A DNA stretch of 64,000 nt, taken from contig JAXMNT010000020.1 of assembly GCA_034670305.1 (NCBI GenBank), forward strand, positions 16,188 through 80,187, written 5' to 3'. The notes beneath the pieces are model-generated. The model saw nothing but the letters and a program-made list of their open reading frames with translations, did not search any database and was not told the origin of the DNA. Within the stretch, counting starts at the first letter, position 1. Every line of letters begins with the position of its first letter. The translations under genes and the position numbers were made by a program. The stretch is from Deltaproteobacteria bacterium (GTDB taxonomy: Bacteria > Myxococcota_A > Polyangia > Polyangiales > Houyiibacteriaceae). This document shows positions 39,801-58,669 of this stretch, one piece after another.

Positions 39801-40841
39801 GTCATGAACGCGGCCGGGCTGATCGACGTCTCCTACGAGAACGGGAAGATCGCCATGGCACTGCTGGAACGCAGCCCCGATCGGTCGATGATGGCGAAGA
39901 CCCAGCACATCGTGCGGGCGCACCTGAACCCCTTCGTCGAACCAATCACCGAGGTCGTGGAACACGAGCGGGCGGTGTTTCAGCTCGGCATGGACACCGG
40001 CGACCTCGAGTACGCGGCCTGGGCACTGCACAACATCGTTGCGTACGGGTTCTACTCGGGCATGCCGCTCGAGGAGTTGCGGCAGGTGGACGAGCGGAGC
40101 CGCACGATCCTCGAGCGCCACAAACAACTTCCGGCGCTCGCCTGCACCAAGCCGTACAGCCAGACCATCACGAACCTCGGTGGCGATGGCACCGTCGCGC
40201 AGTCCACCCAGCTGCGCGGTCTGCACTACGACGAGACCGAGCACATGGCCGAGTTGGTCTCGCTCGGCTTCCGAGGCGCGGCCTACATCTTGACGGTCGC
40301 CCGCACCTTCATCCGCTTCGTCTTTCGAGACATCGAGGGGGCGCTTCGGGCCGCCGACTCCGGCGCCGAGTACGCGGATGGTGCGATCGCCACCTACCAC
40401 GCGGTGTGGTGGAACCAGTACCGAGCCTTGTCCGCCCTCGGGACGCTCGAAACCGCCAAAGAAGACGACCTCTTGATCGTCTCGGCGAAGGCCAACCTCG
40501 CAGCGCTCGAGAAGTGGTGCGCCTTCTCTCCGATCAACCACACCCATCGGGTCGCACTGGTGCAGGCCGAACTCGCACGCGCGCTCGGACAAGACACCGA
40601 GGCGGTCGGTCACTACGAGGTCGCCATTCGCCACGCCGCCGAGGCCGGCTTCTTACACGAAGAAGCCCTGGCCAACGAACTCGCGGGACGCTTCTTCGTG
40701 TCTCGAGACAGCCGGACACAGGCGCGCGCGTTCCTGACCGAAGCACTCGACGCGTACGCCGAGTGGGGCGCCGCCGCCAAAGCCGAGCACCTCGAGATCG
40801 AGTTCACCGAAGCACTGCGCCGCCGCCGCCGCGGCAGCTGA
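36801..40841 (+). CDS. Ser/Thr protein kinase fused to an AAA/STAND ATPase and a TPR-like helical region
   Basis: LGSGGMADV, HRDIKPHN, DFG, YMAPE; Walker A GYAGVGKT; Walker B LFMDDLQWAD; GNPFF; FAHDRIQQAA. Confidence 0.92.
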   Translation: MADPEQPDETKLERTKPSSIDRAKRSEAERAVPEEEAGPDATVDQPRIPPGKQQPGMLVSERVRLDRPLGSGGMADVWVAEHLTLGTSVAVKFLRATHDESLRDRFTREAQLAARIDHPHAVRVFDHGVTSDGTPYMVMEYVEGESLAQRIRRMGALPPAEVGRLVDQVGQVLRDAHERGIIHRDIKPHNIMVLEREPLYCKVLDFGLAKTLTEDETLTQAGWVLGTPAYMAPEQLVDAKPPTKKSDAWGLSIVAYEALVGHRPFRGHHQAALGLGMLVQRFDPVSQARPGLPEALDEWFLKALAVDPDHRFPTVEALTRTFLAALEDASDQPRSRLGADGRIRIPNRLYGRATEIQTVSDAYARVAAGESRLVLFEGYAGVGKTALAEEARRLCAAQGAIFVDGKFDQFNRGAPYESLLQALGKLVRYIGTQSHSSLEGWQARLREALGEVGHVLTDLIPELEDIIGRQSELLETSPAEARNRFQNAVARLMRGVATAERPLVLFMDDLQWADLPTIDLLGSLALSPDEHPHVLVLGAYRSNEVKEGHPLDSCIAGLRQADAALDEVSLGPLGEDAVLELLTDALGSVPGRVRLAVLCHEKTQGNPFFLKRFLEALHEERLLEFDESRDAWTWQQSRIHSRPVGEDVVAFIAAEMGRLPESAREALALAACIGGQFDLGTLSHLMKIDRRRTLECLRPVLAADFILPASDEVFSATEDVGPRRVAFRFAHDRIQQAAHSLFSTDRAAEVHLAVAHFLLEHLDESEREARLFELVEHLNQSADIRPALVGDTPQLRSLNLTAARRATRSAAFEPAGAYYEKARALVDSEHWESDYEQALAIHVEGARAAYFNGDRERMNELVDAAVAHARTTLDAVEAREVKIHALIAEQRFDEAVSLALEVLGQLGIDLPRTPGPDDVGAVVGATIGALQATSAEKISALPDASDPTVVAAQRIKQGVMSAAYLTAPNLLPLLTCDIVQSTLRDGVARQSAYGFAVFGMVMNAAGLIDVSYENGKIAMALLERSPDRSMMAKTQHIVRAHLNPFVEPITEVVEHERAVFQLGMDTGDLEYAAWALHNIVAYGFYSGMPLEELRQVDERSRTILERHKQLPALACTKPYSQTITNLGGDGTVAQSTQLRGLHYDETEHMAELVSLGFRGAAYILTVARTFIRFVFRDIEGALRAADSGAEYADGAIATYHAVWWNQYRALSALGTLETAKEDDLLIVSAKANLAALEKWCAFSPINHTHRVALVQAELARALGQDTEAVGHYEVAIRHAAEAGFLHEEALANELAGRFFVSRDSRTQARAFLTEALDAYAEWGAAAKAEHLEIEFTEALRRRRRGS

Positions 40842-40894
40842 AGGTCCGGAACTTCCGGACCCGTGCGGGACGGGTTCGCGGGTACCCTCTGCGG

Positions 40895-42640
40895 ATGAAA
40901 ACGGCGCTTCCCCAGAACGACTCCAACGCGGCCGCGCGCAGCGACCGACTTGCGAAGAAACAGCAGACCTATCGATTCGCGTACGACTGGCCGCCCGAGG
41001 TCGCCACGTCGGCGGAGCTGCCGAAGGCCGACAACTACGGCGCGCTCTACATCCTCGAGTCCCTCAAGACCTACGCCGCGGTGGGCGTCAACATCGCCGC
41101 GATGGCGATCAAGGGCAACGAAGCGAAGAACCTCATCTCGCTCCTCGAAGCGCGCTTTCGCGACGCGGGGGCCGATGAGTTGCACAAGCTGATCTTCACC
41201 ACCCCGAAGATGGTCTCGGAGTCGTTGCCTGCGCGCTGGCCCACCTCCTGGCGAGAGTACGAAGCGTTCTTCGCCACCTGGCCCACGCCTCCGATCGTCG
41301 GCTTCTACGAGGACCCCGACCCCACCCGCCTCAACCGCGCCTTTGCGTGGCAGCGGGTGGCGGGCGCCAACCCGATGGTGCTCGAACGCTGCGACGCGGT
41401 GCCTCCGCACCTGGCGGTCGACGACGCCATGTACACCCGCGTGATGAAGGGCGATTCGATCGCGGCCGCCATCGCGGAGGAGCGGCTCTACCTCGCGGAC
41501 TACGTCGCGCTCGAAGGCATTCCCACCGGCACCAAAGAGGACTTGCCCAGGTACCTGTGTGCACCGATGGCGCTCTTCGCAGTCGAGCCCATCACCAAGT
41601 CGCTCTACCCCGTCGCCATCCAACTCGGGCAGACCCCGGACGCCGCCTGTTTCACCCCCAACGACGGCTGGCACTGGCGCATGGCGATGCAGTTCGTGCA
41701 GATCGCGGACGCGAACGTACACGAAGGCATCTACCACCTCGGCCGGACCCACATGGTCATGGAAGCGGTGAAGCTGTGCATGGAACGACAGCTCGACGAC
41801 GGCCATCCGCTGCACCGGCTCCTGGTCGCGCACGTGGAGACAACCCTCGCGATCAACCACTCCGCCAAGACCTCGCTCATCGCGCCGGGCGGCACCGTCG
41901 ACCAGTGTTTCGCGCCCACGATCGAAGCGTTCGCGGGCGTCGTGAAGAAGTCGCTCGACACCTACCCGATCGCGACCGCGACGCCGGAGCACGATCTGCA
42001 AGCGCGCGGCCTGACCAACACCGAAGTCCTCGAACACCCCTACCGGGACGACGTCCGGATCGTGCACGCCGCGGTCGAGGCCTTCGTCTCCGAGTACATC
42101 GACCTCTACTACGCGACCGACGCCGATGTCTCGGGCGACGCGGAGCTCCAAGCATTCGTGCGTGAGCTCGGCGCAACCGACGGCGGCCGGCTGGTCGGCA
42201 TGCCGACGGTCCAGACCGTCGCCGACGTGGAGTCGCTCATCACCAAGTTCGTCTTCATCGCGGGTCCCGGCCACTCGGCCGTCAACTTCGCGCAGTTCCC
42301 CTTCATGGGCTTCGTGTCGAACATGGTGGGCTCGGCGTTCCAGCCGGTGCCCACGGCGGACACCCCGAACGAAGAGGCGGAACTGACCAAACTCCTGCCG
42401 CCGCTGCGCATCGCGATGGAGGGCGTGACGATGGTCTACTTCCTTTCGAACATGCGCCCCTCGAAGCTCGGGCACTACGCGCCCTTCCACTTCCGCGACC
42501 ACAAGGTGAACAAGGTGGTGCACACGTTCCAGAAGGCGCTCGAGCGGGTCGAGGCGACCATCGACGAACGCGACCCGCGGCGCCTGATCTCCTATCCCTT
42601 CTTGAAGCCCTCGCTCATCCTCCAGTCCATCGCCATCTAG
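40895..42640 (+). CDS. Lipoxygenase 1 (canonical Fe ligands)
   Basis: LPQND N-terminus; QRVAGANP; HEGIYHLGRTH; HSAVNFAQ; C-terminal SIAI. Confidence 0.92.
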   Translation: MKTALPQNDSNAAARSDRLAKKQQTYRFAYDWPPEVATSAELPKADNYGALYILESLKTYAAVGVNIAAMAIKGNEAKNLISLLEARFRDAGADELHKLIFTTPKMVSESLPARWPTSWREYEAFFATWPTPPIVGFYEDPDPTRLNRAFAWQRVAGANPMVLERCDAVPPHLAVDDAMYTRVMKGDSIAAAIAEERLYLADYVALEGIPTGTKEDLPRYLCAPMALFAVEPITKSLYPVAIQLGQTPDAACFTPNDGWHWRMAMQFVQIADANVHEGIYHLGRTHMVMEAVKLCMERQLDDGHPLHRLLVAHVETTLAINHSAKTSLIAPGGTVDQCFAPTIEAFAGVVKKSLDTYPIATATPEHDLQARGLTNTEVLEHPYRDDVRIVHAAVEAFVSEYIDLYYATDADVSGDAELQAFVRELGATDGGRLVGMPTVQTVADVESLITKFVFIAGPGHSAVNFAQFPFMGFVSNMVGSAFQPVPTADTPNEEAELTKLLPPLRIAMEGVTMVYFLSNMRPSKLGHYAPFHFRDHKVNKVVHTFQKALERVEATIDERDPRRLISYPFLKPSLILQSIAI

Positions 42641-42730
42641 CGGCAGCCGACGCGCACGTCGTCACGACGCGCCGCCGGCACTGCTTCCGACATCCTCACG
42701 CGGCATCGCGCCGCATCGAAGAGAGAGCCC

Positions 42731-44476
42731 ATGACCAGCCCGACCCTTCCGCAGAACGACCCCGCCATCGACGAGCGGAAGGCCCAGCTGGCCAATGCCC
42801 GCGTGTCGTACCAGTTCGACTTCAGCTACCAGGAGATCGTCTCCGCGAAAAAGGTGCCGCTGCGGGAGAAGTCCGATCCGCACTACTGGCTCGCCCTCGC
42901 GGAGGTCACCGGCGAACTCAAAGCCAACCAACTCGCGAGCCGGTCGCTCGAAGAGAACGTCGACGCGATCGGTGAGAAGTTCGTGCAGGGTCTGGCGGAT
43001 GCCTTCGCGAAACTCGCGCCCGGTGAGATCGCAGAGCGGCTGAAGAAGGAGACGCGCGCCTCCCCTCCGCCCGAGACCGACCGGAGCCCCGAGAGCTACG
43101 ACAAGATGTACGCGCGGATCGCGCCGCCTTCGGTGTCCGCGCGCTGGGCAGAGGACGAGATCTTCGCGTGGCAGGCGCTCGCCGGCTGCAACCCGATCAT
43201 GATCCACCGGTTCGCGGGCATGCCGCACTTCGGCGTGACCGCCGCCCACTTCGACAGCGCAATGAAAGCGCTGAAGGTCGAGGGCGCCGGGACCTACGAG
43301 AGCGCGCTGAAGGAGGGGCGGCTCTTCGTCGCCGACTACCAGATCCTCGACCACATCACGCCGGGGGCCTACGAAGGCGCGCCGAAGTTCATCTTCGCCC
43401 CGCTCGCACTCTACGTGTCGCTCCCCGGCGGTCGGTTCCTGCCGGTCGCGATCCAGTGCGGACAGACCCCGGAAGCCGGCATCTTCACACCGGCCGATGG
43501 CATGAGCTGGCGCATGGCCCGCACCGTCGTCACGAGCGCGGACGGAAACTTCCAAGGCATCATCTCGCACTTCGCTTGGTGCCACGAAGTGATGGAGTCG
43601 GTGATCCTCTCCACCCACCGGCAGCTCGCGGACAACCACCCGCTCCACGTGCTGCTCTCGCCGCATTTCGCGAACACGATGATCACCAACGACATCGCGA
43701 TGACCTCGCTCATCGGACCGAACGGCAACATGGAGCGGTTGCAGAGCGGCACACTCGAGTCTTCGCTGGATCTCGCGAAGCGTTCGATCCGGGAGTTCCG
43801 CCTGCTCGACTCCGCCCCCGCGAAGGACTTCGCGGCGCGCGGCGTCGACGACACCGACGCGCTCGCGGCGTATCCGTTTCGAGACGACAGCCTGCGGTCC
43901 TGGGGACCGTTGCAAGCCTGGGTCCGCGGCTACCTCGAGCTCTATTACACTTCCGACGAACTGGTCGCGGGCGACCACGAACTCGCAGCCTGGGTGGACG
44001 AACTCGGAAGCCACGAAGGCGGCCGACTGCTCGGACTCGAACGGCCGCAGACCTTTGACGCGCTCGTCGATTTCGTCGCGCAGATCATGTTCCGCTGCAC
44101 CGTCTTCCACGCGGCGTTCAACTACACCTCGTACGACTTCTTCGCCTACGCCCCGAACGTCCAGGCCGCCGCGTTCGGACCCGGACCGACCGGCACCGAC
44201 GCCGACACCGTCGAGACCCTTCAAGCGATGTGGCCTCCCTACCAGTCGGCGTACGAAGGCATGCACCTGTTCTACACGATCTTCAAAGTGCAGCTGAACC
44301 GGGTCGGGTACTACCCCGACGGTCACTTCACCGACCCGCGCGTGGCGCCGCTCGAGACCGCCTTGAAGGCCGCGCTCGACGAAGCCGAAGCCGCGATCGC
44401 CAAGGACGACGACAAGCGCATCCTCTCGTACCCGTACCTGATGCCGTCGCGGGTGAGCAACAGCATCCACGTCTGA
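42731..44476 (+). CDS. Lipoxygenase 2 (divergent)
   Basis: [33 protein letters not shown]-terminal SIHV. Confidence 0.88.
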
Positions 44477-49564: not shown

Positions 49565-49632
49565 CTCGGGTCCCAGCCGCTGCGGGTCAAGAAGGTTGAT
49601 CCGTCCAGGCGTCTGAGTCGTATAGTCCGATC

Positions 49633-50022
49633 GTGACCTCCCCTGCCTACCGCCGGACCGACGCCGCCTTTGGGCTGCTGTTGTGGATCCTGGGCGGGGA
49701 GTTTCTTCCTTTGGCGCATCTGGTGATGCACGAGGACCTGGGCGAGCACACCCACGACGCGCACGAACGCGCGCACGAACAGGGACGCGCCCACCCCCAC
49801 CCCGAGCCGGAAGACGACAGCGACCCATCGACCGGGCCGTCTTCCCAGGCGCACGGCGAGGGCAGCTTTGCCCATCACGACGAGATGATGGCGCAAGGCG
49901 CGCTGGCACCGCCGCTGGTCCCACCGACCCGCCTGGGCGTGCCGCCGGCGCTCCCGTCGCCGTGGACGCCCGCCGGCCGGACCTTGGTCCGGACCGCCAA
50001 CGCGCGCGCTCCTCCGGTCTGA
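49633..50022 (+). CDS. His-rich leader ORF ending in RAPP (DUF2946/CruR-like putative arrest peptide)
   Basis: TATAGT-N6-GTG start; hydrophobic N-terminus, His cluster, Pro-rich linker, ...NARAPPV-stop; directly upstream of a TBDT gene. Confidence 0.72.
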   Translation: MTSPAYRRTDAAFGLLLWILGGEFLPLAHLVMHEDLGEHTHDAHERAHEQGRAHPHPEPEDDSDPSTGPSSQAHGEGSFAHHDEMMAQGALAPPLVPPTRLGVPPALPSPWTPAGRTLVRTANARAPPV

Positions 50023-50061
50023 ACGACCTCCGAAACCATCGTTCGTGAGCGACCCAGGTCT

Positions 50062-50105
50062 TGAGATCAGGTCTTGAGATCCGTCTGAGATCTCTGCCTG
50101 AGATC
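50062..50105. repeat. Four TGAGATC direct repeats in the uORF-TBDT spacer
   Basis: At 50062, 50075, 50086 and 50099. Confidence 0.8.
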
Positions 50106-50223
50106 GCCGCTCGCCATTCCGTGAAGCGGGATCTTTGGCATCCCTGCCTCCGTCTTCATTCGTGTCCGCTCGATCTCGAGTTCGAGCTGGGCTCTTCCTT
50201 CTCCAACGAAGCGTTGCCTTCGC

Positions 50224-52998
50224 ATGCCCTCTTCTTCCGCGCAGTTCGCGTCCGGAGTCTCCGTGGTGCTGTTGCTCGTTGCGTTCTCCTCGAACGCGTC
50301 GGCACAGAACAACACCCCGGAACGCGTGCCGCCGTCCGTCGGGCACGCGCCGGCCGTCGCCTGGCCCGCGGGGGCGCCGGAGGGGCCGCGAGAGGTGGTG
50401 GTCGTGCTCTCGCTCGAGGTCGACGCCGACGGCGTGCTCACGGGCGCCCAAGTGGTGACCGCGCCTCTCCCATCGGTCCTGTTTCGTCGAGCGGCGCTGG
50501 CCCACGTCGCGCAGATCGTGTTCCGCCCGGCGACGGTGGATGGCGTGCCCGTGGCGGCGCGGGTTCAGTACGCAGTGCGGTTCCGGGCGCCAGTGGCGGC
50601 CGACGTGGGGGCTGAGACCGACGCCGAGGCCGACGCCGAAGCCGAGGCCGACTCCGAAGCGGATGGCGAAGCCGACTCCGACGCCGACGCCGACTCCGAT
50701 GCCGAGGCCGATGCCGACTCCGATGCCGATGCCGATGCCGATGCCGGTGCCGATGCCGATGCCGATGCCGATGCCGATGCCGATGCCGATGCCGATGCCG
50801 ATGCCGATGCCGACTCCGACGCCGACTCCGGCTCCGACTCCGACTCCGAAGCTGGTGCCGGTGCCGACTCCGACTCCGACTCCGAAGCCGGTTCGTTCGG
50901 GGCGCGGGGGTGGACGGATCTGGATGTCGTCGAGCGGCCGCCGGCCGCCGCGAGTGAGTCCGACATCCAGCTCACCGCTTTCCGTTCGGTGCCCCGGCGA
51001 TCCGCCGAAGAGAACCTGACGCTCGCGCCTGGGATCGTGCTCGCGAACCATGGCGGCGAAGGCAAAGCGAGCGGCATCTACCTGCGCGGGTTCGATGCCG
51101 GTGAGGGGCAGGACGTGGAGGTGCTCGTCGATGGCATCCCGCTCAACGAACCGAGCAACGCACACCTGCACGGCTACGCCGACAGCCACTTTCTGATCCC
51201 CGAGCTCGTAGAGAGCCTGCGTCTGCTCCCGGGTCCGTTCGACCCGGCGCAAGGGGACTTCGCCCTCGCGGGCACCGTCGAACACCGCCTCGGCGCGGAC
51301 GAACCCGGCCTGCAGATCTTGGGCGGCTACGGATCGTACGCGCGCCGCCGCGCGTTGCTGCTGCTCGCGCAGGACGAACAACGGTTCGTCGGTTTCGAAG
51401 TCCAGTCGGGCGCAGGCTTCGGCATCAACCGACAGCACCGCAACGTGCGGCTGCTCGCGCGGTGGGGCGGCGGCGACGGCCGGCTCAGGTACCACATCAC
51501 CCTCGCGAGCCACGCGCTCCGCTTCGATTCCGCCGGGGTGGTTCGGTCCGACCGCGTGACGGCCCGCGCCCTCCCCTGTGCCTCGGACAGCGACGCCCAG
51601 TTCTTCTGCACGGACGACAACAACCAAGGCGGCTCGGCTTCCCGGCACCTCGTCGCCGCCCACCTGGACTGGCGGCGTCCCGGCCAGCGGTACCGGCAAG
51701 TCGTATGGGCCCAGCTGCGACGCAACCGGTTCCGAGAGAACTTCACCGGCACCCTCTTCGACGAGCGCGGCGATGGGCTCGACGAGCTGACCGACACCGT
51801 CACCGTCGGACTTCGGGGCGACTACGTCACCGACGCACTCGTCCGGCGCGGTCCACTGCGCGGCCTTCGGCAACAGCTGGAGCTTGGCTACCTCGCGCGC
51901 CACGACCGCGGCGAGTCCCGGATGTTTCGGGTGCGCGGCACGGGTGAACCGCATTCGGTGGTGTTCGACGACGACCTCGCGCTCACCCACGTCGCCGCCC
52001 ACGTCACCGGCGTGTTGCGGGTGCCCCGGTTGTCCGTCCGCGCGGGTGCGCGGATCGCAGGGTTCGTCTTCTCCACCGTGGACCACAACCAACCGGAGAT
52101 GGACCGAGTCGGCGAACGACTGCCGGAACAGTCCACCGAAGCGTTCGGCATCGCGTTGCTGCCGAGGATGAGCGCCGCGGTTCACCTGCTCGAGGGGTTC
52201 GACTGGACCACCAGCCTCGGTCTCGGGAGTCGATCCAGCGATGCGCGCGCGCTCAGCGAAGGCGAGTCGGCACCGTTCGCCCGGGCGCGTTCCGTGGAGA
52301 GTGGCTTGTCCCTGCTCCGAACGGTGGGAGACGTGAAGTTGGACGCGCGGGCGGGCGCGTTCTGGACGAACGTCGATCGCGATTTGCTCTTCGACTCCGA
52401 GTTCGGACGCAACGTGCCGCTCGGCGAGACCCAACGGTTCGGCGCGTTCGCGTCGCTCGGGGTTCACCTGGACGATTGGGTGGACCTGCTCGGCAGCTTC
52501 GCGTGGACCGAAGCACACCAGGCGCTCGATGGGGCCGGACCGTTCGATCTCACGAGCGGCCCCCGACTGCCCTTCGTACCCCGCTTCGTTGGACGGCTGG
52601 ACGCCGCGCTTCGCCGCGAAGTCAAAGTGCGCAACGACGGTGTCGTCTTCGGGCTCGCCGCCGGTGCCAGCCTCATCGGTCGGCGCCCGCTGCCGAACGA
52701 GCAGCTGTCTCAGCGCATCTTCGTGGTGGATGCCGCCGGCAGCATGCGCTGGCGCTGGCTCGAACTGGACATCGCGGTCCGCAACCTGCTCGACACGCGC
52801 TACCGCGCGGTCGAGCTGCAGTACGAGTCGCGCTTCGCCGCGGACGACTTCGGTTCGCTGCGCCCGGCCCGCCACTTCGCCGCGGGTCCGCCCCTCGAGG
52901 TCATGACGAGCCTCACCGTGCACCTGGACCTCCAAGCGTTCCGAAGTGTGTCCCAAGAAGACGCGTCCGCGCCGTCGAACCCAAGTGAGACCCCATGA
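50224..52998 (+). CDS. TonB-dependent receptor with an N-terminal TonB_C-like domain and an Asp-Ala tract
   Basis: [11 protein letters not shown]...[11 protein letters not shown] (TonB_C); plug [24 protein letters not shown]; barrel ending VRNLLD. Confidence 0.88.
50614..50889 (+). repeat. In-frame (GCCGAT/TCCGAC)n tract encoding ~90 aa of Asp/Glu-Ala/Ser
   Basis: Read directly. Confidence 0.92.
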
Positions 52999-53804
52999 CC
53001 CGCCCCATCCAGCTGCCCGTGCTCTGCGTCCGAAGCGCAGTGCCAGCTCACCGAAGCGCAGTGCTGTCCTCGAGAATCGCTGTGCTCTTCGCGCTCGCCC
53101 TGCCCTTTCTCCCCACCCCTGGGTGCGGCGCGGGAACCGGCGCGCCGATCGTCGACGCGTCTTTTGCGATCGGCGGCAGCGACGCGGCGCGGTCCTTCGC
53201 GACCTCTGCGGGTTGGCAGGTCGAGCTCACCGAAGCGCGCATCGTGCTCGGACCCATCTACGCGTTGGCACCCCGCGACGAAGTGCCCATGGCCTTGCGC
53301 CTTTGGCCCACGTCGGTCGCCCGCGCCCACGGCGGCTTCGACGCACTCGATGGCCGCATCGTGCGCATGGAGGTGCTCGATCAGTTCCTCGTCGACGCCC
53401 TCGCGCCGGAGCCGCAGATCATCGCGACGCTGGCCGAAGAAGGCCGCGCCACCGAACTGTCGGTCGGCATCCTGCCACCGGTCGATCGGCACGTAGAAGC
53501 AACCCGCGGCTTCGATGTTTGGGTCGAGGGCACGGCCCGCCAAGGAGAGACCGAGGTGCCCTTCAGCGGCGGCCTCGATCTCGGCGACGACCCCATGGCG
53601 CGCCGAGTCCAGAACATCGACCTCGACGCGAGCCTTGCCGAAGGCGGCACACTCCAGCTCTTGGTCGATGCGCGCGTCTGGCTCGACGGCGTCGACTTCG
53701 ACCGGGTCGACGGCGAGTTCGCCCTGGACGGCCAGGCCCACGCCGCGCTCCGCGTCGGCGCGCGGCGACCCACTGCATTTTCGGCGACCTACCAGGCGCC
53801 CTAA
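52995..53804 (+). CDS. TBDT-associated hypothetical lipoprotein
   Basis: ATGA overlap; hydrophobic segment followed by PGC; ARAHGG. Confidence 0.7.
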   Translation: MTRPIQLPVLCVRSAVPAHRSAVLSSRIAVLFALALPFLPTPGCGAGTGAPIVDASFAIGGSDAARSFATSAGWQVELTEARIVLGPIYALAPRDEVPMALRLWPTSVARAHGGFDALDGRIVRMEVLDQFLVDALAPEPQIIATLAEEGRATELSVGILPPVDRHVEATRGFDVWVEGTARQGETEVPFSGGLDLGDDPMARRVQNIDLDASLAEGGTLQLLVDARVWLDGVDFDRVDGEFALDGQAHAALRVGARRPTAFSATYQAP

Positions 53805-53836: not shown

Positions 53837-54742
53837 ATGACCATGAACAACACCCATCGCCCGCGGAGAGCTGGAATCGGCTCCCTGATCCTTCTCGCCA
53901 TCGTTGCGTGCGGCAGCGGGTCCACCGGCACCCTCGAAGTCCAACTCTCCGGTGAAGAAGCCAGCCAAGTCGGCTTCCCGGTCGGTGAAGGCGAGGGGCT
54001 GATCGCCTTCACCGATGGCTGGCGCATCGCATTCGATCGTGTGCTGGTCTCCGTCTCCGAGATCCACGTGCGCGCCTCGGACGGAGACGACGCGCTCGTC
54101 ATGGCCGATCCAGTCGTCGTCGACCTGCATCTCGGCGAGCCGATCGCCTGGCGCTTCGAGAACGTGCCTTCGCGCCGCTGGGACCGCGTGTCGTACCAGT
54201 TCGCGCCCGCCACTTCGGCGAGCCGCGGCGTGGGCGACATCTCCGCCGACGACGTGCAAGCCATGGCAGCCGGTGGCCACTCCTTCTGGATCGAAGGCAC
54301 CGCCACCCGCGGCGAGGAGTCGGTGGCGTTCTCCTGGCAGTTCGACGCCTCCATCGAGAACACCGGCTGCATCAACGGCATGGACGAGACCGATGGTCTG
54401 GTCGTGCGCGAGAGCGGCGTCAGTGGTGTGCAGCTCACCGTGCACTTCGACCACCTCTTCTTCGACAGCTACGCCCACGACGATCCGCAGCTGCGTTTCG
54501 ATCCCATCGCGGCGGTGGCGGGAGACGACGGCGTCGTGACGCTCGAGGAACTCGCCTCCCAATCGATCGTCGACATGCGCGACGCCGAAGGCGCACCGAT
54601 TCTGATCGACGGCGCCCCCCTGACCTACGACCCAGGCGACCTCGACATTCCGACGACCGACCTGCGCGCGTACATGATCGGCGCCCTGAGCACGACGGGA
54701 CACTTCAACGGCGAAGGCCACTGCGACTACGAGTTGCGTTAG
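53837..54742 (+). CDS. TBDT-associated lipoprotein with candidate metal ligands
   Basis: Lipobox IVAC; TVHFDHLFFD; C-terminal GHFNGEGHC. Confidence 0.75.
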   Translation: MTMNNTHRPRRAGIGSLILLAIVACGSGSTGTLEVQLSGEEASQVGFPVGEGEGLIAFTDGWRIAFDRVLVSVSEIHVRASDGDDALVMADPVVVDLHLGEPIAWRFENVPSRRWDRVSYQFAPATSASRGVGDISADDVQAMAAGGHSFWIEGTATRGEESVAFSWQFDASIENTGCINGMDETDGLVVRESGVSGVQLTVHFDHLFFDSYAHDDPQLRFDPIAAVAGDDGVVTLEELASQSIVDMRDAEGAPILIDGAPLTYDPGDLDIPTTDLRAYMIGALSTTGHFNGEGHCDYELR

Positions 54743-55137
54743 TCGGCGCAGGTGTCGCAGAGGCCGCGCAGCTGCACTTCTTCGACGTGGGCCACGCCCG
54801 TCACCGCGACCGACTCGATCGGGAGGCACGCCACGGTGCCGCACTCGGTACAGAGCAGATGCGGATGCTCCTGGTGGCGCTTCTCGCTCGCGAGCTCGAA
54901 CCGCCACACGTGGTCGCCGTGGTCCGAGCGTTTCGCCAAGCCCACTTCGACCAGGTCGCTCAGGTTGCGGTAGAGCGTCGCGCGGTCGAACCCGCGGGCG
55001 GCCAGACCGTCGTTCACTTCGGAGTGGCTGAGCGGCCGCGTCGCTGCCAGAAGCAACTCCAGCACCGCCATGCGGGCGCCGGTCGCTCGGAGCCCATGGG
55101 CCCGGAGCGCGGCTTTCAGCTCGTCGACACTGGCCAC
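54739..55137 (-). CDS. Fur-family regulator (Zur/Nur-like)
   Basis: GLRATGAR, DRATLYRNL, HQEHPHLLCTECG, GLCDTC; start GTG at 55137 or 55143. Confidence 0.9.
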   Translation of the reverse strand: MASVDELKAALRAHGLRATGARMAVLELLLAATRPLSHSEVNDGLAARGFDRATLYRNLSDLVEVGLAKRSDHGDHVWRFELASEKRHQEHPHLLCTECGTVACLPIESVAVTGVAHVEEVQLRGLCDTCAD

Positions 55138-55216
55138 CCGCACAGCATCCCACGCACCCCCGCCATCAGCAACCACAACCCAGTTGCAAAAACGACCCGG
55201 TTGCGTACGGTGCAGC

Positions 55217-56794
55217 ATGGTCGCCGCTTTGGCCATCTCTGTCCTCTCGGTCGTGTTCGGTGCGTTGCTCGCGCTGGGCCGTCGACGTTGGGCCATGCAC
55301 GGGCTGCAGACGTTCGCGGTCGTGGCCGCGCTCGCGGTCGTGCTCATGCACCTGCTGCCCGAAGCATTCGTGGGGGCCGGCATCGGCGCACTGGTCGTGT
55401 TCGGCATCGCGTTCGGTGCCGCGCGCCTTCTCGACCGGTTCCACACACACGACGTCGACGCGGCCGATCCGGCACGGAAGGAGTGGGGTCTCGAGCTCGG
55501 CTTCTGGGCTTTGTGTCTGCACAAGCTCATGGATGGCCTCGCGCTCGGCTGGTACGCGCGGCAGGGCTTCTCCCGCTTCTCGGGCGGCCCGAACTTCGAC
55601 GTGCTCTTCGCGCTCGCCGCCCACGCGGTGCCGGTGACCGCGCTCGTCGTCATCGCCTACCTGCCGCGCGGCACGAAGGTCGCCCTCACCCGCGCCGCGT
55701 GGTTGGCCGGCATGAGCGTCGCGGGTGTGCTGCTCGTGCGGGTGCTTCCCACGAGCCTCTACGTGCCCGTCGCACCGTGGATGGCGGCGGTCACCGGCGG
55801 ACTGCTCTTGCACGTGGTCTCGCACTCCCACGGCGCCGACGCGCGGTCGCACGACGGGCCGATCCCACTGCGTTCGCGGGTCGTCGACCTCCTGGCGATC
55901 GGTGGCGCGCTGATGCTCGTCGTGCTCGCTCGAGGGCCCGTCGGTCCGGCCGGCGACATCCGCTGGCGCACCGTCGACGCATTCGTCGAGCTCGGTCTCG
56001 AAGTCGCGCCCGTGCTCGTGGTCGCACTGCTCGCCGTCGCGCTGCTCCGCACCAGCCTCGAACGCACCCAGCTCGGTTCGCGTGTGCTCTCGGTATTGGT
56101 TCCGCTGGCTGCGATCGAGACCCTCGCCGTCTCGACGCGGCTGCTCGGGGAATCGTTCGCGGCGCTTCGCGTCGCCAACGCGATCGGCATCGCGCTCGTC
56201 GCCGGCGCGCTCGTCCGGCACAGCCGCAAGAAACAAGAGCCCACCACGCTCGCGCCGCAGCTCGATCGGCTCTTCGCGCGCACCGTCCCGTGGACGTTGA
56301 TCGGGTTGCTCGCCGCCGCGTACGTCCAAGTGCTCCTTCCCCCTCAAGCGCTCGCCCAGGTCTCTCTTGGGACCGCGTTTCTGGTGGTGACCCTCGTCGC
56401 GGTCCCGAGCTACATGTGCCCGGTCGCGGTCACGCCGCTCGCAGCGGTACTCATCGCCCGCGGCCTGCCCGCAGGGGCCGTTCTTGCGGGGTTGCTGCTG
56501 GGCCCTGCACTGCATCTCACGATGGCCAACCACCTCGCACGCAGCCACGGCCGCAAAGCAGCGCTGCTCTTCGTCGGCATCGTGCTGACGCTGGCCTGGG
56601 GCGCCGGTGGGTTCGTCGAATGGTCGGAGCTTCCGATCGCGCTGCGGGTCGAAATCGAGCCGCACCTGCACCATCCGCTCGAACAGCTCGCCCTCGGCAT
56701 CTGCGCCGCGGTCGTGGCGCGGATGCTCTATCTGTTCGGAATTCATGGTTTCTTTGCGACGGCGAGCCCCGACCGGTCCCGCATCGCCGTCTGA
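55217..56794 (+). CDS. Membrane protein: N-terminal ZIP-like domain fused to a DUF318/ArsP-like permease domain
   Basis: LMHLLPEA, LHKLMDGLALG, AAHAVP (ZIP); PSYMCPVAVTPLAAVL...GLLLGP (permease). Confidence 0.72.
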   Translation: MVAALAISVLSVVFGALLALGRRRWAMHGLQTFAVVAALAVVLMHLLPEAFVGAGIGALVVFGIAFGAARLLDRFHTHDVDAADPARKEWGLELGFWALCLHKLMDGLALGWYARQGFSRFSGGPNFDVLFALAAHAVPVTALVVIAYLPRGTKVALTRAAWLAGMSVAGVLLVRVLPTSLYVPVAPWMAAVTGGLLLHVVSHSHGADARSHDGPIPLRSRVVDLLAIGGALMLVVLARGPVGPAGDIRWRTVDAFVELGLEVAPVLVVALLAVALLRTSLERTQLGSRVLSVLVPLAAIETLAVSTRLLGESFAALRVANAIGIALVAGALVRHSRKKQEPTTLAPQLDRLFARTVPWTLIGLLAAAYVQVLLPPQALAQVSLGTAFLVVTLVAVPSYMCPVAVTPLAAVLIARGLPAGAVLAGLLLGPALHLTMANHLARSHGRKAALLFVGIVLTLAWGAGGFVEWSELPIALRVEIEPHLHHPLEQLALGICAAVVARMLYLFGIHGFFATASPDRSRIAV

Positions 56795-56798
56795 CCCC

Positions 56799-56835
56799 TT
56801 GACCTGTTCGATTCAACACTTCATCATTCATTCAA
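56799..56835 (+). promoter_or_regulatory. Putative promoter TTGACC-N17-CATCAT in an AT-rich, imperfectly palindromic tract (likely ArsR operator)
   Basis: -35 at 56799-56804, -10 at 56822-56827. Confidence 0.4.
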
Positions 56836-56862
56836 GTGATGGAGGATGTGAGACGAGGCCCC

Positions 56863-57228
56863 ATGCTGATCGATGTCGAGTCCGCCGACCCTCTGGAAGA
56901 CGAGGCGTGCGAACACGAACACGAAGGCGTCGATCACGAATCGATCGACCCGGATGTTCTGGAACGCGCCGCCGCGATCTTTCACGCAGCGGGTGATCCC
57001 GGTCGCCTTCGCATCCTTCACTGCTTGCTCTGCGAAGAGCACTGCGTAAGCGACCTGGCCGCCGAAATGGGCGACGCCATGTCGACGATCTCGCAGCGCC
57101 TGAAGGTGCTGCGCTCGCAGCGCCTCGTCACCCGTCGCCGGGACGGAAAACACATCTACTACGGACTCGCCGACGACCACGTCGCCGAACTCGTCCGCAG
57201 TGCCATCGAACACGCCAGTCACCACTGA
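56863..57228 (+). CDS. ArsR/SmtB metalloregulator
   Basis: GDPGRLRIL, CVSDLA, ISQRLKVLR, alpha5 site DDHVAELVRSAIEH; His/Cys-rich N-terminus; start uncertain. Confidence 0.9.
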   Translation: MLIDVESADPLEDEACEHEHEGVDHESIDPDVLERAAAIFHAAGDPGRLRILHCLLCEEHCVSDLAAEMGDAMSTISQRLKVLRSQRLVTRRRDGKHIYYGLADDHVAELVRSAIEHASHH

Positions 57229-57247
57229 CCCACCAAGGAGCCCGCTC

Positions 57248-57586
57248 ATGCACGACCACGAAGACCACGACCACGAACACGGCGAAGGCTGTGGACACAC
57301 CCAGGTCAAACACGGGGACCACGTCGACTTCGTGCACGACGGACATCTGCACCACGCCAAGGCGGACGGTGCGATCGAAGAGCACGCGCTCGAGGTGACC
57401 GAAGACAACCCAGCGGGCTGCAAGCCCCACTCGTGTGCCTCGCACGAAGGCGACCACGAACACGGTGTCGACTGCGGACACGAAGCGGTCCCGCACGGCG
57501 ACCACACCTGCTACATCGTGGATGGCCACCTGCACCACCCGCACGGCGATCACTGCGACGACCACGGCCCCGTCGAAGTCGTCTAG
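57248..57586 (+). CDS. His/Cys-rich metallothionein-like protein
   Basis: AAGGAG SD; two HxHGxxCGHxxVxHGDHxxxxxDGHLHH repeats. Confidence 0.85.
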   Translation: MHDHEDHDHEHGEGCGHTQVKHGDHVDFVHDGHLHHAKADGAIEEHALEVTEDNPAGCKPHSCASHEGDHEHGVDCGHEAVPHGDHTCYIVDGHLHHPHGDHCDDHGPVEVV

Positions 57587-57625: not shown

Positions 57626-58669
57626 ATGATCAAGTACCTCGGTTCCAAGCGCCGTCTGCTCCCTCAGCTGACGGCGCTTTTTGGCGCGTTGCCCGACGCG
57701 CACCATGTGCTGGATCTGTTCAGTGGCACCGCCCGGGTGGGACGCGCGCTCAAAGCAGCCGGCCACCAGGTCACCTCCTGCGACGAGCTCACCTTCGCCG
57801 CGACCCTGGCGCGCTGCTACGTGCAGGCGGATCCCGCCAAGGTGACACCTCGGGTGAAGCGCGCGCTGAAGGAGCTCGCCGCCCTGCCTCCGAAGCCCGG
57901 CTACTTCACGAAGACCTTCTGTGAAGACGCGCGCTTCTTCCAGCCGAAGAACGGCGCCCGCATCGACGCGATGCGTGACGGGCTCGACGACCTCGATCTG
58001 GACGAAGACACCCGCGCGGTCGTGATGGTCGCGCTGATGGAAGCCGCCGACCGGGTCGACAGCACCACCGGCGTGCACATGGCCTACCTGAAACAGTGGG
58101 CGCGGCGCGCGCACAACGATCTCGAACTCCGCATGCCGGAACTCGTGCCCGGCACCGGCCGCGCCCACCTCGAGAGCGCCGCGACGGTGGCGCGCACCAC
58201 TCCGGCCGACGCCGCGTACCTCGACCCGCCGTACAACCAGCACAGCTACCTCGGCAACTACCACGTGTGGGAGACGCTCGTGCGCTGGGACGCGCCGGAA
58301 GCCTACGGCGTCGCGCAGAAGCGCATCGATCGCAAGACCCGCAAGTGCGCCTTCAACTCCAAGCGCGCGATCGAAGGCGCGCTGAAAGAAGTGCTCGACG
58401 CGCTCGACGTTCGGCACGTCGTGGTGTCGTTCAACGACGAGGGCTACCTCTCGCGCGACCAGCTGATCGAGATGCTCTCCCCCCGCGGGCACGTGGAAGT
58501 CGTCGCGATCGACCACGCCCGCTACGTCGGCGCGAAGATCGGGATCCACGATCCGAGCGGACAGAAGGTCGGCAAGGTCAGCCACACCCGCAACCAAGAG
58601 CTGCTCTTCATCGCCACGGGGCGCCCGGCCGACGCCCAAGCCGCCGCCGCCGCCTGCACCCGCGCCTGA
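57626..58669 (+). CDS. Orphan N6-adenine DNA methyltransferase (Dam/D12-like)
   Basis: KYLGSK, VLDLFSGT, YLDPPYN. Confidence 0.88.
   Translation: MIKYLGSKRRLLPQLTALFGALPDAHHVLDLFSGTARVGRALKAAGHQVTSCDELTFAATLARCYVQADPAKVTPRVKRALKELAALPPKPGYFTKTFCEDARFFQPKNGARIDAMRDGLDDLDLDEDTRAVVMVALMEAADRVDSTTGVHMAYLKQWARRAHNDLELRMPELVPGTGRAHLESAATVARTTPADAAYLDPPYNQHSYLGNYHVWETLVRWDAPEAYGVAQKRIDRKTRKCAFNSKRAIEGALKEVLDALDVRHVVVSFNDEGYLSRDQLIEMLSPRGHVEVVAIDHARYVGAKIGIHDPSGQKVGKVSHTRNQELLFIATGRPADAQAAAAACTRA

Follow-up and report, generated by a model that had tools for sequence, protein, structure and literature searches.

We analysed a 64,000-nucleotide stretch of DNA (the window) in which a His-rich leader ORF of 129 residues (49633..50022, + strand), with topA as its upstream neighbour, stands ahead of a TonB-dependent receptor gene. 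The ORF opens with GTG, closes with ARAPPV-TGA and encodes 11 His and 0 Cys residues. A −10-like hexamer, TATAGT (49621..49626, + strand), lies 6 nt ahead of the GTG, and a spacer of 201 nt (50023..50223, + strand) runs from the leader stop to the receptor ATG; the original prediction had described the ORF in these terms (TATAGT-N6-GTG, 129 residues, a dense His cluster, no Cys, RAPPV-stop, 201 nt before the receptor), and each of them held. The leader transcript is likely leaderless, beginning at or next to the GTG. A TAnnnT hexamer was located 5–10 nt ahead of the start at 22 of 36 family loci and, in the host genome as a whole (rough gene calls), before 628 of 3512 operon-first genes (18%) as against 14 of 2630 internal controls; leaderless starts look common in this genome.

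The N-terminal hydrophobic segment that had been claimed was also evident (residues 13–31; 49669..49725, + strand; best 19-residue hydropathy 1.7) and is likely a membrane anchor or export signal; a low-confidence structure model (pTM 0.37) placed a helix over residues 4–35. Two His motifs, P26-x2-H29-x3-H33-x5-H39-x-H41 (49708..49755, + strand; unchanged in 56/56 aligned sequences) and H74-G-x-G-S-F-A-H81 (49852..49875, + strand; H74 and H81 invariant, serving as the anchor for the spacing measurements below), precede the RAPP codons R125–P128 (50005..50016, + strand), whose Arg and both Pro are invariant. These codons constitute the predicted stall site, following the motif function described in PMC12992588 (here and below, statements on published systems draw on the portions of the cited sources that were available). 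The leader protein gave nothing above cut-off in Pfam or NCBIfam, and a fold search with the leader model returned no match.

We then evaluated whether the ORF exceeds chance expectation. In the host genome, 310 stop-to-stop frames end near R[AG]PP, and 13 of the 310 have at least 8 His in their last 140 residues; of these 13, only the leader, on inspection by eye, carries a hydrophobic segment and does not read as Arg-rich off-frame text. We fetched 46 loci via the receptor, not the leader, and scanned the upstream DNA for R[AG][PG]P near a stop. The same ORF type was present upstream of 20 of the 46 receptor homologues (n = 21 with the window locus), the nearest homologues being Polyangiales and Sandaracinaceae records, in keeping with the Myxococcota placement of the original prediction. 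Common to all 21 are a hydrophobic segment, P-x2-H-x3-H-x5-H-x-H, a His-rich loop (25–84 residues), H-[GD]-x5-H, a Pro-rich linker and R[AG]PP (1–13 residues from the stop), and six His, the Arg and both Pro were invariant in 56/56 aligned sequences. Family loci use several synonymous codons for R[AG]PP, and dN/dS was 0.23–0.53 in 9/9 leader pairs, indicating that the leader family is under purifying selection. By frame count, recurrence upstream of receptors and dN/dS, the ORF exceeds chance expectation; furthermore, the comparison proposed with the original prediction, of small upstream ORFs at orthologous receptors, found R[AG]PP, the His motifs and their spacing conserved at the 20 of 46 loci that carry the ORF.

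A profile matched at least 18 of 401 phylum genomes (best 10 candidates scored per genome). When the 18 profile-found loci were read by eye, 13 led into the same receptor type, 3 led into lipoprotein 1 (described below) and 2 were disrupted. In L100, L101 and L102 the leader stands ahead of lipoprotein 1, with the receptor divergent in two genomes; the disrupted copies (L095, L103/L105) comprise one in which the receptor frame breaks downstream of the leader and one whose leader is divided between two frames. At L046:4817-5251, a more distant receptor of this type is preceded by a different small leader-like ORF, which has His/Cys motifs and the end APKTSPPSA. When 1.84 billion representatives were searched, 257 matched at E up to 1e-10, and the first His pattern was found in 146 of 150 distant representatives (identity <50%). 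The absence of Cys noted in the original prediction stands for the window ORF but does not extend to the family, in which 40 of the 150 distant representatives are Cys-free and some members add a Cys-His-x3-Cys-His motif; judged from these sequences, the family trait is the absence of CxxC (0/21 receptor-found loci, 2/150 distant representatives). A protein atlas query with homologue P0033 returned unnamed clusters at 0.96, with Myxococcota, Verrucomicrobiota and Gemmatimonadota as the commonest phyla and DUF6769 as a lead. The literature covered, with subscription journals outside it, held no study of the leader family, of a zinc-sensing arrest leader or of MXAN_7330 (discussed below).

The number of residues intervening between the last invariant His and the Arg was 43 at 18 of the 21 receptor-found loci and 42–44 at all 21, even though the His-rich loop ahead of this stretch ranges from 25 to 84 residues. 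It was 42–44 in 36/36 loci once the profile-found loci were added and in 135/136 measurable representatives (14/150 unparsed), the profile-found sets being partly circular in this respect and the first 21 loci free of circularity. In CruR, the distance from CxxC to RAPP is 45 and conserved within 1–2 residues, and inserting 5 residues disrupts regulation (PMC9426467); arrest on CruR has been demonstrated by toeprinting, and stalling at RAPP/RGPP, which resists EF-P, occurs when the first Pro occupies the P site (PMC12992588). The fixed His-to-Arg ruler and its parallel in CruR are the main reason why we interpret the ORF as an arrest leader that senses force. It is very probably a real leader of the arrest type, and there is a good chance that such a leader responds to metal; conservation, fixed spacing and synteny support the reading of a His-based sensing leader. 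Loss of EF-P from the host was considered and rejected, EF-P being present.

The receptor (50224..52998, + strand; ATG at 50224; 924 residues) combines TonB_C (N-terminal) and Plug domains with an Asp-Ala repeat linker; compared with solved structures it gave only weak plug-domain matches, to BtuB and Cir, and no substrate clue. Lipoprotein 1 (52995..53804, + strand; the true start may be later) has no family match and a conserved A-x-A-H, with H112 kept in 39/41. Lipoprotein 2 (53837..54742, + strand; start approximate) has a conserved H-x-D-H and a predicted MbnP-like fold (model pLDDT 96; best structural match MbnP, Z 10.0, rmsd 3.9, 194 aligned); this modelled resemblance amounts to a shared fold and shows no function. 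Among the 46 loci the receptor occurs in 46, lipoprotein 1 in 43 and lipoprotein 2 in 36, and the leader stands before the same cassette wherever the downstream genes are intact. Convergent with the cassette is a Fur-family regulator (54739..55143, − strand; PF01475), 55% identical to the product of the Fur-family gene beside zigA in L027 and likely Zur-like; a Zur-box-like palindrome with 2 mismatches (55174..55188; consensus from PMC545781) lies between it and a divergent permease. Window positions 54739–57586 form a metal cluster made up of this Zur-like regulator, the divergent permease (weak ArsP/SO_0444/ZIP similarity), an ArsR/SmtB regulator and a 128-residue His/Cys-rich protein, which has no family match and is metallothionein-like by eye. 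A D12-class adenine DNA methyltransferase occupies 57626–58669. Two tandem ORFs at about 40700–44476 resemble lipoxygenases when their motifs are inspected by eye.

We investigated the possible output of the switch through rho, RNase J and RNA folding. Rho was not found in the host genome (96% complete; two profiles plus sequence motifs; controls detected); it was found in 0/24 sampled genomes of the host's family, 2/41 relatives and 4/36 leader genomes, many of the tested genomes being metagenome assemblies and several of them 95–100% complete. One of 12 Myxococcota species lacked Rho in a published survey (PMC11347177); the host's family and its relatives form a possible large high-GC Rho-less lineage that is not listed in the available part of that survey. 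RNase J was present in 30/36 leader genomes, and in four leader genomes neither rho nor RNase J was found. Because most hosts have no detectable rho, the switch is probably Rho-independent.

Within the spacer, TGAGATC-type tandem repeats (50055–50105, + strand) are followed by two predicted hairpins (50102–50133 and 50164–50192, + strand), which are stable when folded and carry pyrimidine tails with weak U tracts. These hairpins point to a rival for the output step only, namely that the same sensor acts through a locus-specific RNA structure, by intrinsic attenuation or start-site masking; CutF works via stem-loop melting (bioRxiv 10.1101/2025.02.05.636593). The stall footprint paired with downstream RNA at z >1.64 in 4/36 loci, but over the 36 loci pairing was no better than in shuffles (mean z 0.02), as was the window spacer fold (z −0.96). 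In equilibrium folding, which ignores co-transcriptional kinetics, blocking the footprint took the receptor start-region accessibility from 0.55 to 0.55 and left both hairpins unchanged; with regard to unmasking of the SecM/CutF type, the footprint is predicted neither to pair with nor to free the start region. Given shuffle-level pairing and the unchanged hairpins and start region, attenuation or start-site masking is unsupported here, and we regard an output through RNA structure as possible but rather unlikely. Spacers across homologues differ in length and have no evident shared sequence or structure; unrelated tandem repeat expansions occur in those of the window, L011, L014 and L096. A sigma-70 scan gave 0 promoters. 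Rfam gave no match in the window region and, in 31 leader-less loci, two tRNAs only, with no cobalamin or NiCo riboswitch, which argues against a riboswitch.

A stalled ribosome that shields mRNA has a precedent in ermC (PMC7509114). The rarity of rho, the lack of a predicted structural switch, RNase J in 30/36 genomes and the leaderless look of 22/36 loci together favour mRNA shielding, which we put forward tentatively, at a little under an even chance, as the output in Rho-less hosts; the four leader genomes in which neither rho nor RNase J was found count against it.

We next considered which metal would be sensed. The pattern TGCAAC-N3-GTTGCA, which matches a Desulfovibrio Zur site (PMC545781; predicted only), was found with at most one mismatch before 11/46 leader-less cassettes vs 0/21 leader-bearing ones (0/36 with profile-found loci), and is absent from 35 of those 46; the 46 are the cassettes with upstream DNA, once duplicates had been removed along with six loci that had hardly any sequence upstream or none, and the counts include kin (L039 and L041 are near copies). 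The whole host genome (7.9 Mb) holds 2 such sites, one before a sugar-nucleotide gene and the other before a second receptor cassette (G000:C8:78796-83125, L106), in which a paralogous receptor and two lipoproteins stand behind the Zur-type box with no leader seen. Neighbours of leader-less cassettes include AztD-like genes (7 loci, below cut-off), ZigA (above cut-off), a Fur-family gene and MerC. In a receptor tree (quick search, SH-aLRT only; duplicates, fragments and L054 left out), the 20 leader-bearing rows fell into one branch of 26 (SH-aLRT 99), which also holds one box-bearing locus (L036), one nikR locus (L016), two loci that have neither feature and two truncated at contig ends. Both L016 and L051 have nikR and a NikR-like palindrome in place of the leader; the palindromes (L016:2179-2205, L051:4785-4811) precede nikR, a gene that runs in the same direction as the receptor cassette. 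The distribution looks as though a peptide switch and a transcription-factor site had been exchanged for one another on the same cassette. Since predicted Zur boxes are often present before leader-less orthologous cassettes, zinc is favoured, and we consider it the reasonably probable metal provided that the leader is metal-responsive.

The same stalling switch tuned to nickel or cobalt is an unlikely variant. The nikR genes with their palindromes speak for it, with L016 inside the leader clade, but these are two related loci against 11 with a Zur-type box. His-only CutF-like leaders precede HupE/UreJ genes (PMC9973294), and 16/36 leader genomes have matches to urease, full NiFe hydrogenase or SodN, the three nickel enzymes that the test covered; against this, 20/36, the host included, have no clear match to any of them, and 3 of those 20, again including the host, have a partial hydrogenase-family match only. 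A Zur-like gene is present in 20/36 leader genomes, host included, and the host's Zur-like gene together with its separate box-bearing cassette means that the leader cassette might serve another metal. The scan of the 31 leader-less loci, with no cobalamin or NiCo riboswitch, also counts against nickel or cobalt. A membrane-anchored His-rich metal buffer or chaperone, in which the stall only times export, or alternatively a monitor of secretion capacity, would suit the large and variable His loop, and the RAPP peptides ApdA and ApdP monitor protein export (PMC12992588); however, a chaperone needs neither a fixed His-to-Arg distance nor a swap with transcription-factor sites, and the constant cassette behind the leader wherever the downstream genes are intact weighs against chaperone and monitor alike, making these readings quite improbable. 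Least probable is a CruR-like copper switch with His replacing CxxC, for which the predicted fold that lipoprotein 2 shares with the copper-binding MbnP, the MbnPH-like genes of cruR operons (PMC9426467) and the Cys-His-x3-Cys-His of some members could be cited, but zinc-type neighbours and boxes dominate and no PCuAC, SCO, CopC or MbnH was detected among the scanned neighbour representatives (37 vs NCBIfam, 24 vs Pfam; most singletons outside the scan).

On balance we lean modestly towards a stalling metal-sensor leader that would leave the cassette expressed under metal shortage, zinc being the most likely metal, with mRNA shielding as its output. The transcript would start at or next to the GTG, and the hydrophobic segment would thread the His region through the Sec channel. 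The ribosome would then stall with Pro127 in the P site, a position that would place H74–H81 just beyond the tunnel or at the periplasmic face. Metal bridging the two His motifs would fold the chain and pull the stall free; until then, the stalled ribosome would act as a 5′ roadblock shielding downstream mRNA from decay, the most likely output given the missing Rho and the absence of a predicted structural switch. As the stalled ribosome would shield the mRNA, its release would lower importer synthesis.

A wider profile applied to a second sample matched 39/301 genomes and revealed a sister subfamily. Q[GA]P-stop is the ending of 22 of the 29 loci examined; in these 22 the Gln follows the last His at a distance of exactly 43 residues, and the stop codon is TAG in 21/22. 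The remaining loci end in RAPP, RGPP, GAPP, GAP-stop, RDPP or SPPP. The leaderless hexamer was seen at 0/29 second-sample loci. With the Gln at the same 43-residue distance, the stop codon would stand where RAPP has its second Pro. Termination is slowed by a C-terminal Pro, and the Gln-Gly-Pro-stop group is a possible termination-arrest form. Among the matches listed, 119/120 homologues end in Q[GA]P, with a spacing of 43 in 116, 44 in one and two read by eye, the profile having contained the Q[GA]P ending and the genomes being close kin; the genera include Myxococcus, Corallococcus, Stigmatella, Cystobacter and Archangium. In 2/2 regions read, the leader is followed by the same receptor and two lipoproteins, and rho was found in 5/5 Q[GA]P genomes tested. 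In Myxococcus xanthus DK1622, MXAN_7330 is a subfamily member (end AMPQGP) and MXAN_7331, which the literature covered names only in a table, is listed there as a TonB-dependent receptor; we take the two to be adjacent from their tag numbers and from relatives. Comparison of the RAPP and QGP profiles aligned only 29 N-terminal columns (probability 92%), and with so short an alignment their kinship rests also on profile hits, shared His motifs, spacing and synteny. That one family builds a six-His zinc clamp on a 43-residue tether, used for RAPP/RGPP arrest and mRNA shielding in Rho-lost lineages and for termination arrest at Gln-Gly-Pro-UAG in Rho-bearing Myxococcales (MXAN_7330), is a speculative synthesis that we think unlikely as a whole.

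If true, the leader would be a translational stand-in for Zur, and the Pro-stop version would be the first metal-sensing termination-arrest peptide within the literature searched. In the literature covered, copper is the one metal for which sensing through a stalled nascent chain has been demonstrated (CruR, CutF), and the family offers a comparative pointer to zinc as well as a natural experiment on the operation of such switches in the absence of Rho. Because the Pro-stop version occurs in the genetically tractable M. xanthus DK1622, metal choice and release force are directly testable.

Among known systems, the leader most resembles CruR (Bp2923, DUF2946/PF11162), which heads bfrG in Bordetella pertussis. 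Both are the first gene before a TonB-dependent receptor with a long spacer between, and both have an N-terminal hydrophobic segment, a C-terminal RAPP and a fixed distance from metal motif to RAPP, 45 from CxxC in CruR vs 43 from the last invariant His in the leader, the anchors being different. CruR has CxxC, responds to copper and acts via Rho-dependent termination, whereas the leader has His motifs instead, a zinc-type family context and hosts mostly without detected rho. The analogy drawn in the original prediction holds for export segment, RAPP, fixed spacing and receptor context, and fails for the output, rho not having been found in the host genome or in most leader genomes. Membership in DUF2946, which had been suggested for checking, was not borne out: the leader has no CxxC and no match to PF11162 at E up to 1, the host genome has none, and weak matches in 15/56 relatives (best E 0.0022) are inferred to fall under the 23.7 bit cut-off. 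By sequence anatomy, then, the leader would work like CruR and fails DUF2946 membership on score, CxxC and Rho.

CutF and the CutF-like clusters 14 and 17 are likewise small and exported, with a metal motif and a Pro-rich end (PMC9973294; bioRxiv 10.1101/2025.02.05.636593). Clusters 14 and 17 share with the leader a His-rich motif without a Cys motif, a signal and a Pro-Pro end; they precede HupE/UreJ, and Ni or Co sensing has been proposed for them (Ozturk 2023, PMC9973294), whereas the leader precedes the receptor or lipoprotein 1. CutF acts by melting a stem-loop that covers the next start site (bioRxiv 10.1101/2025.02.05.636593), and no such melting is predicted at the leader. ApdA, ApdP and the TonB-related class resemble the leader in motif, position and localisation signal, the latter class also in its downstream receptor; RAPP/RGPP leaders before TonB receptors are general across Gram-negative phyla (Fujiwara 2025, PMC12992588), and the family member MCB9656136.1 appears at row 4038 of the RAPP list given for Fig. 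4B in that work, whose available portions make no mention that we found of the leader family, its His ruler, its metal or the Gln-Gly-Pro-stop group. The stop codon in the A site after Pro links the QGP subfamily to TnaC/PepNL termination arrest (PMC11890864); unlike QGP leaders, TnaC and PepNL are short and cytoplasmic, without export signal or metal motif. The novelty originally asserted was consequently overstated, in view of the His-only leaders of PMC9973294 and the RAPP/RGPP leaders, with one family row, of PMC12992588. What is new here is that rho was found in only 4/36 hosts, that no RNA switch is predicted and that a QGP sister subfamily keeps the same 43-residue distance.
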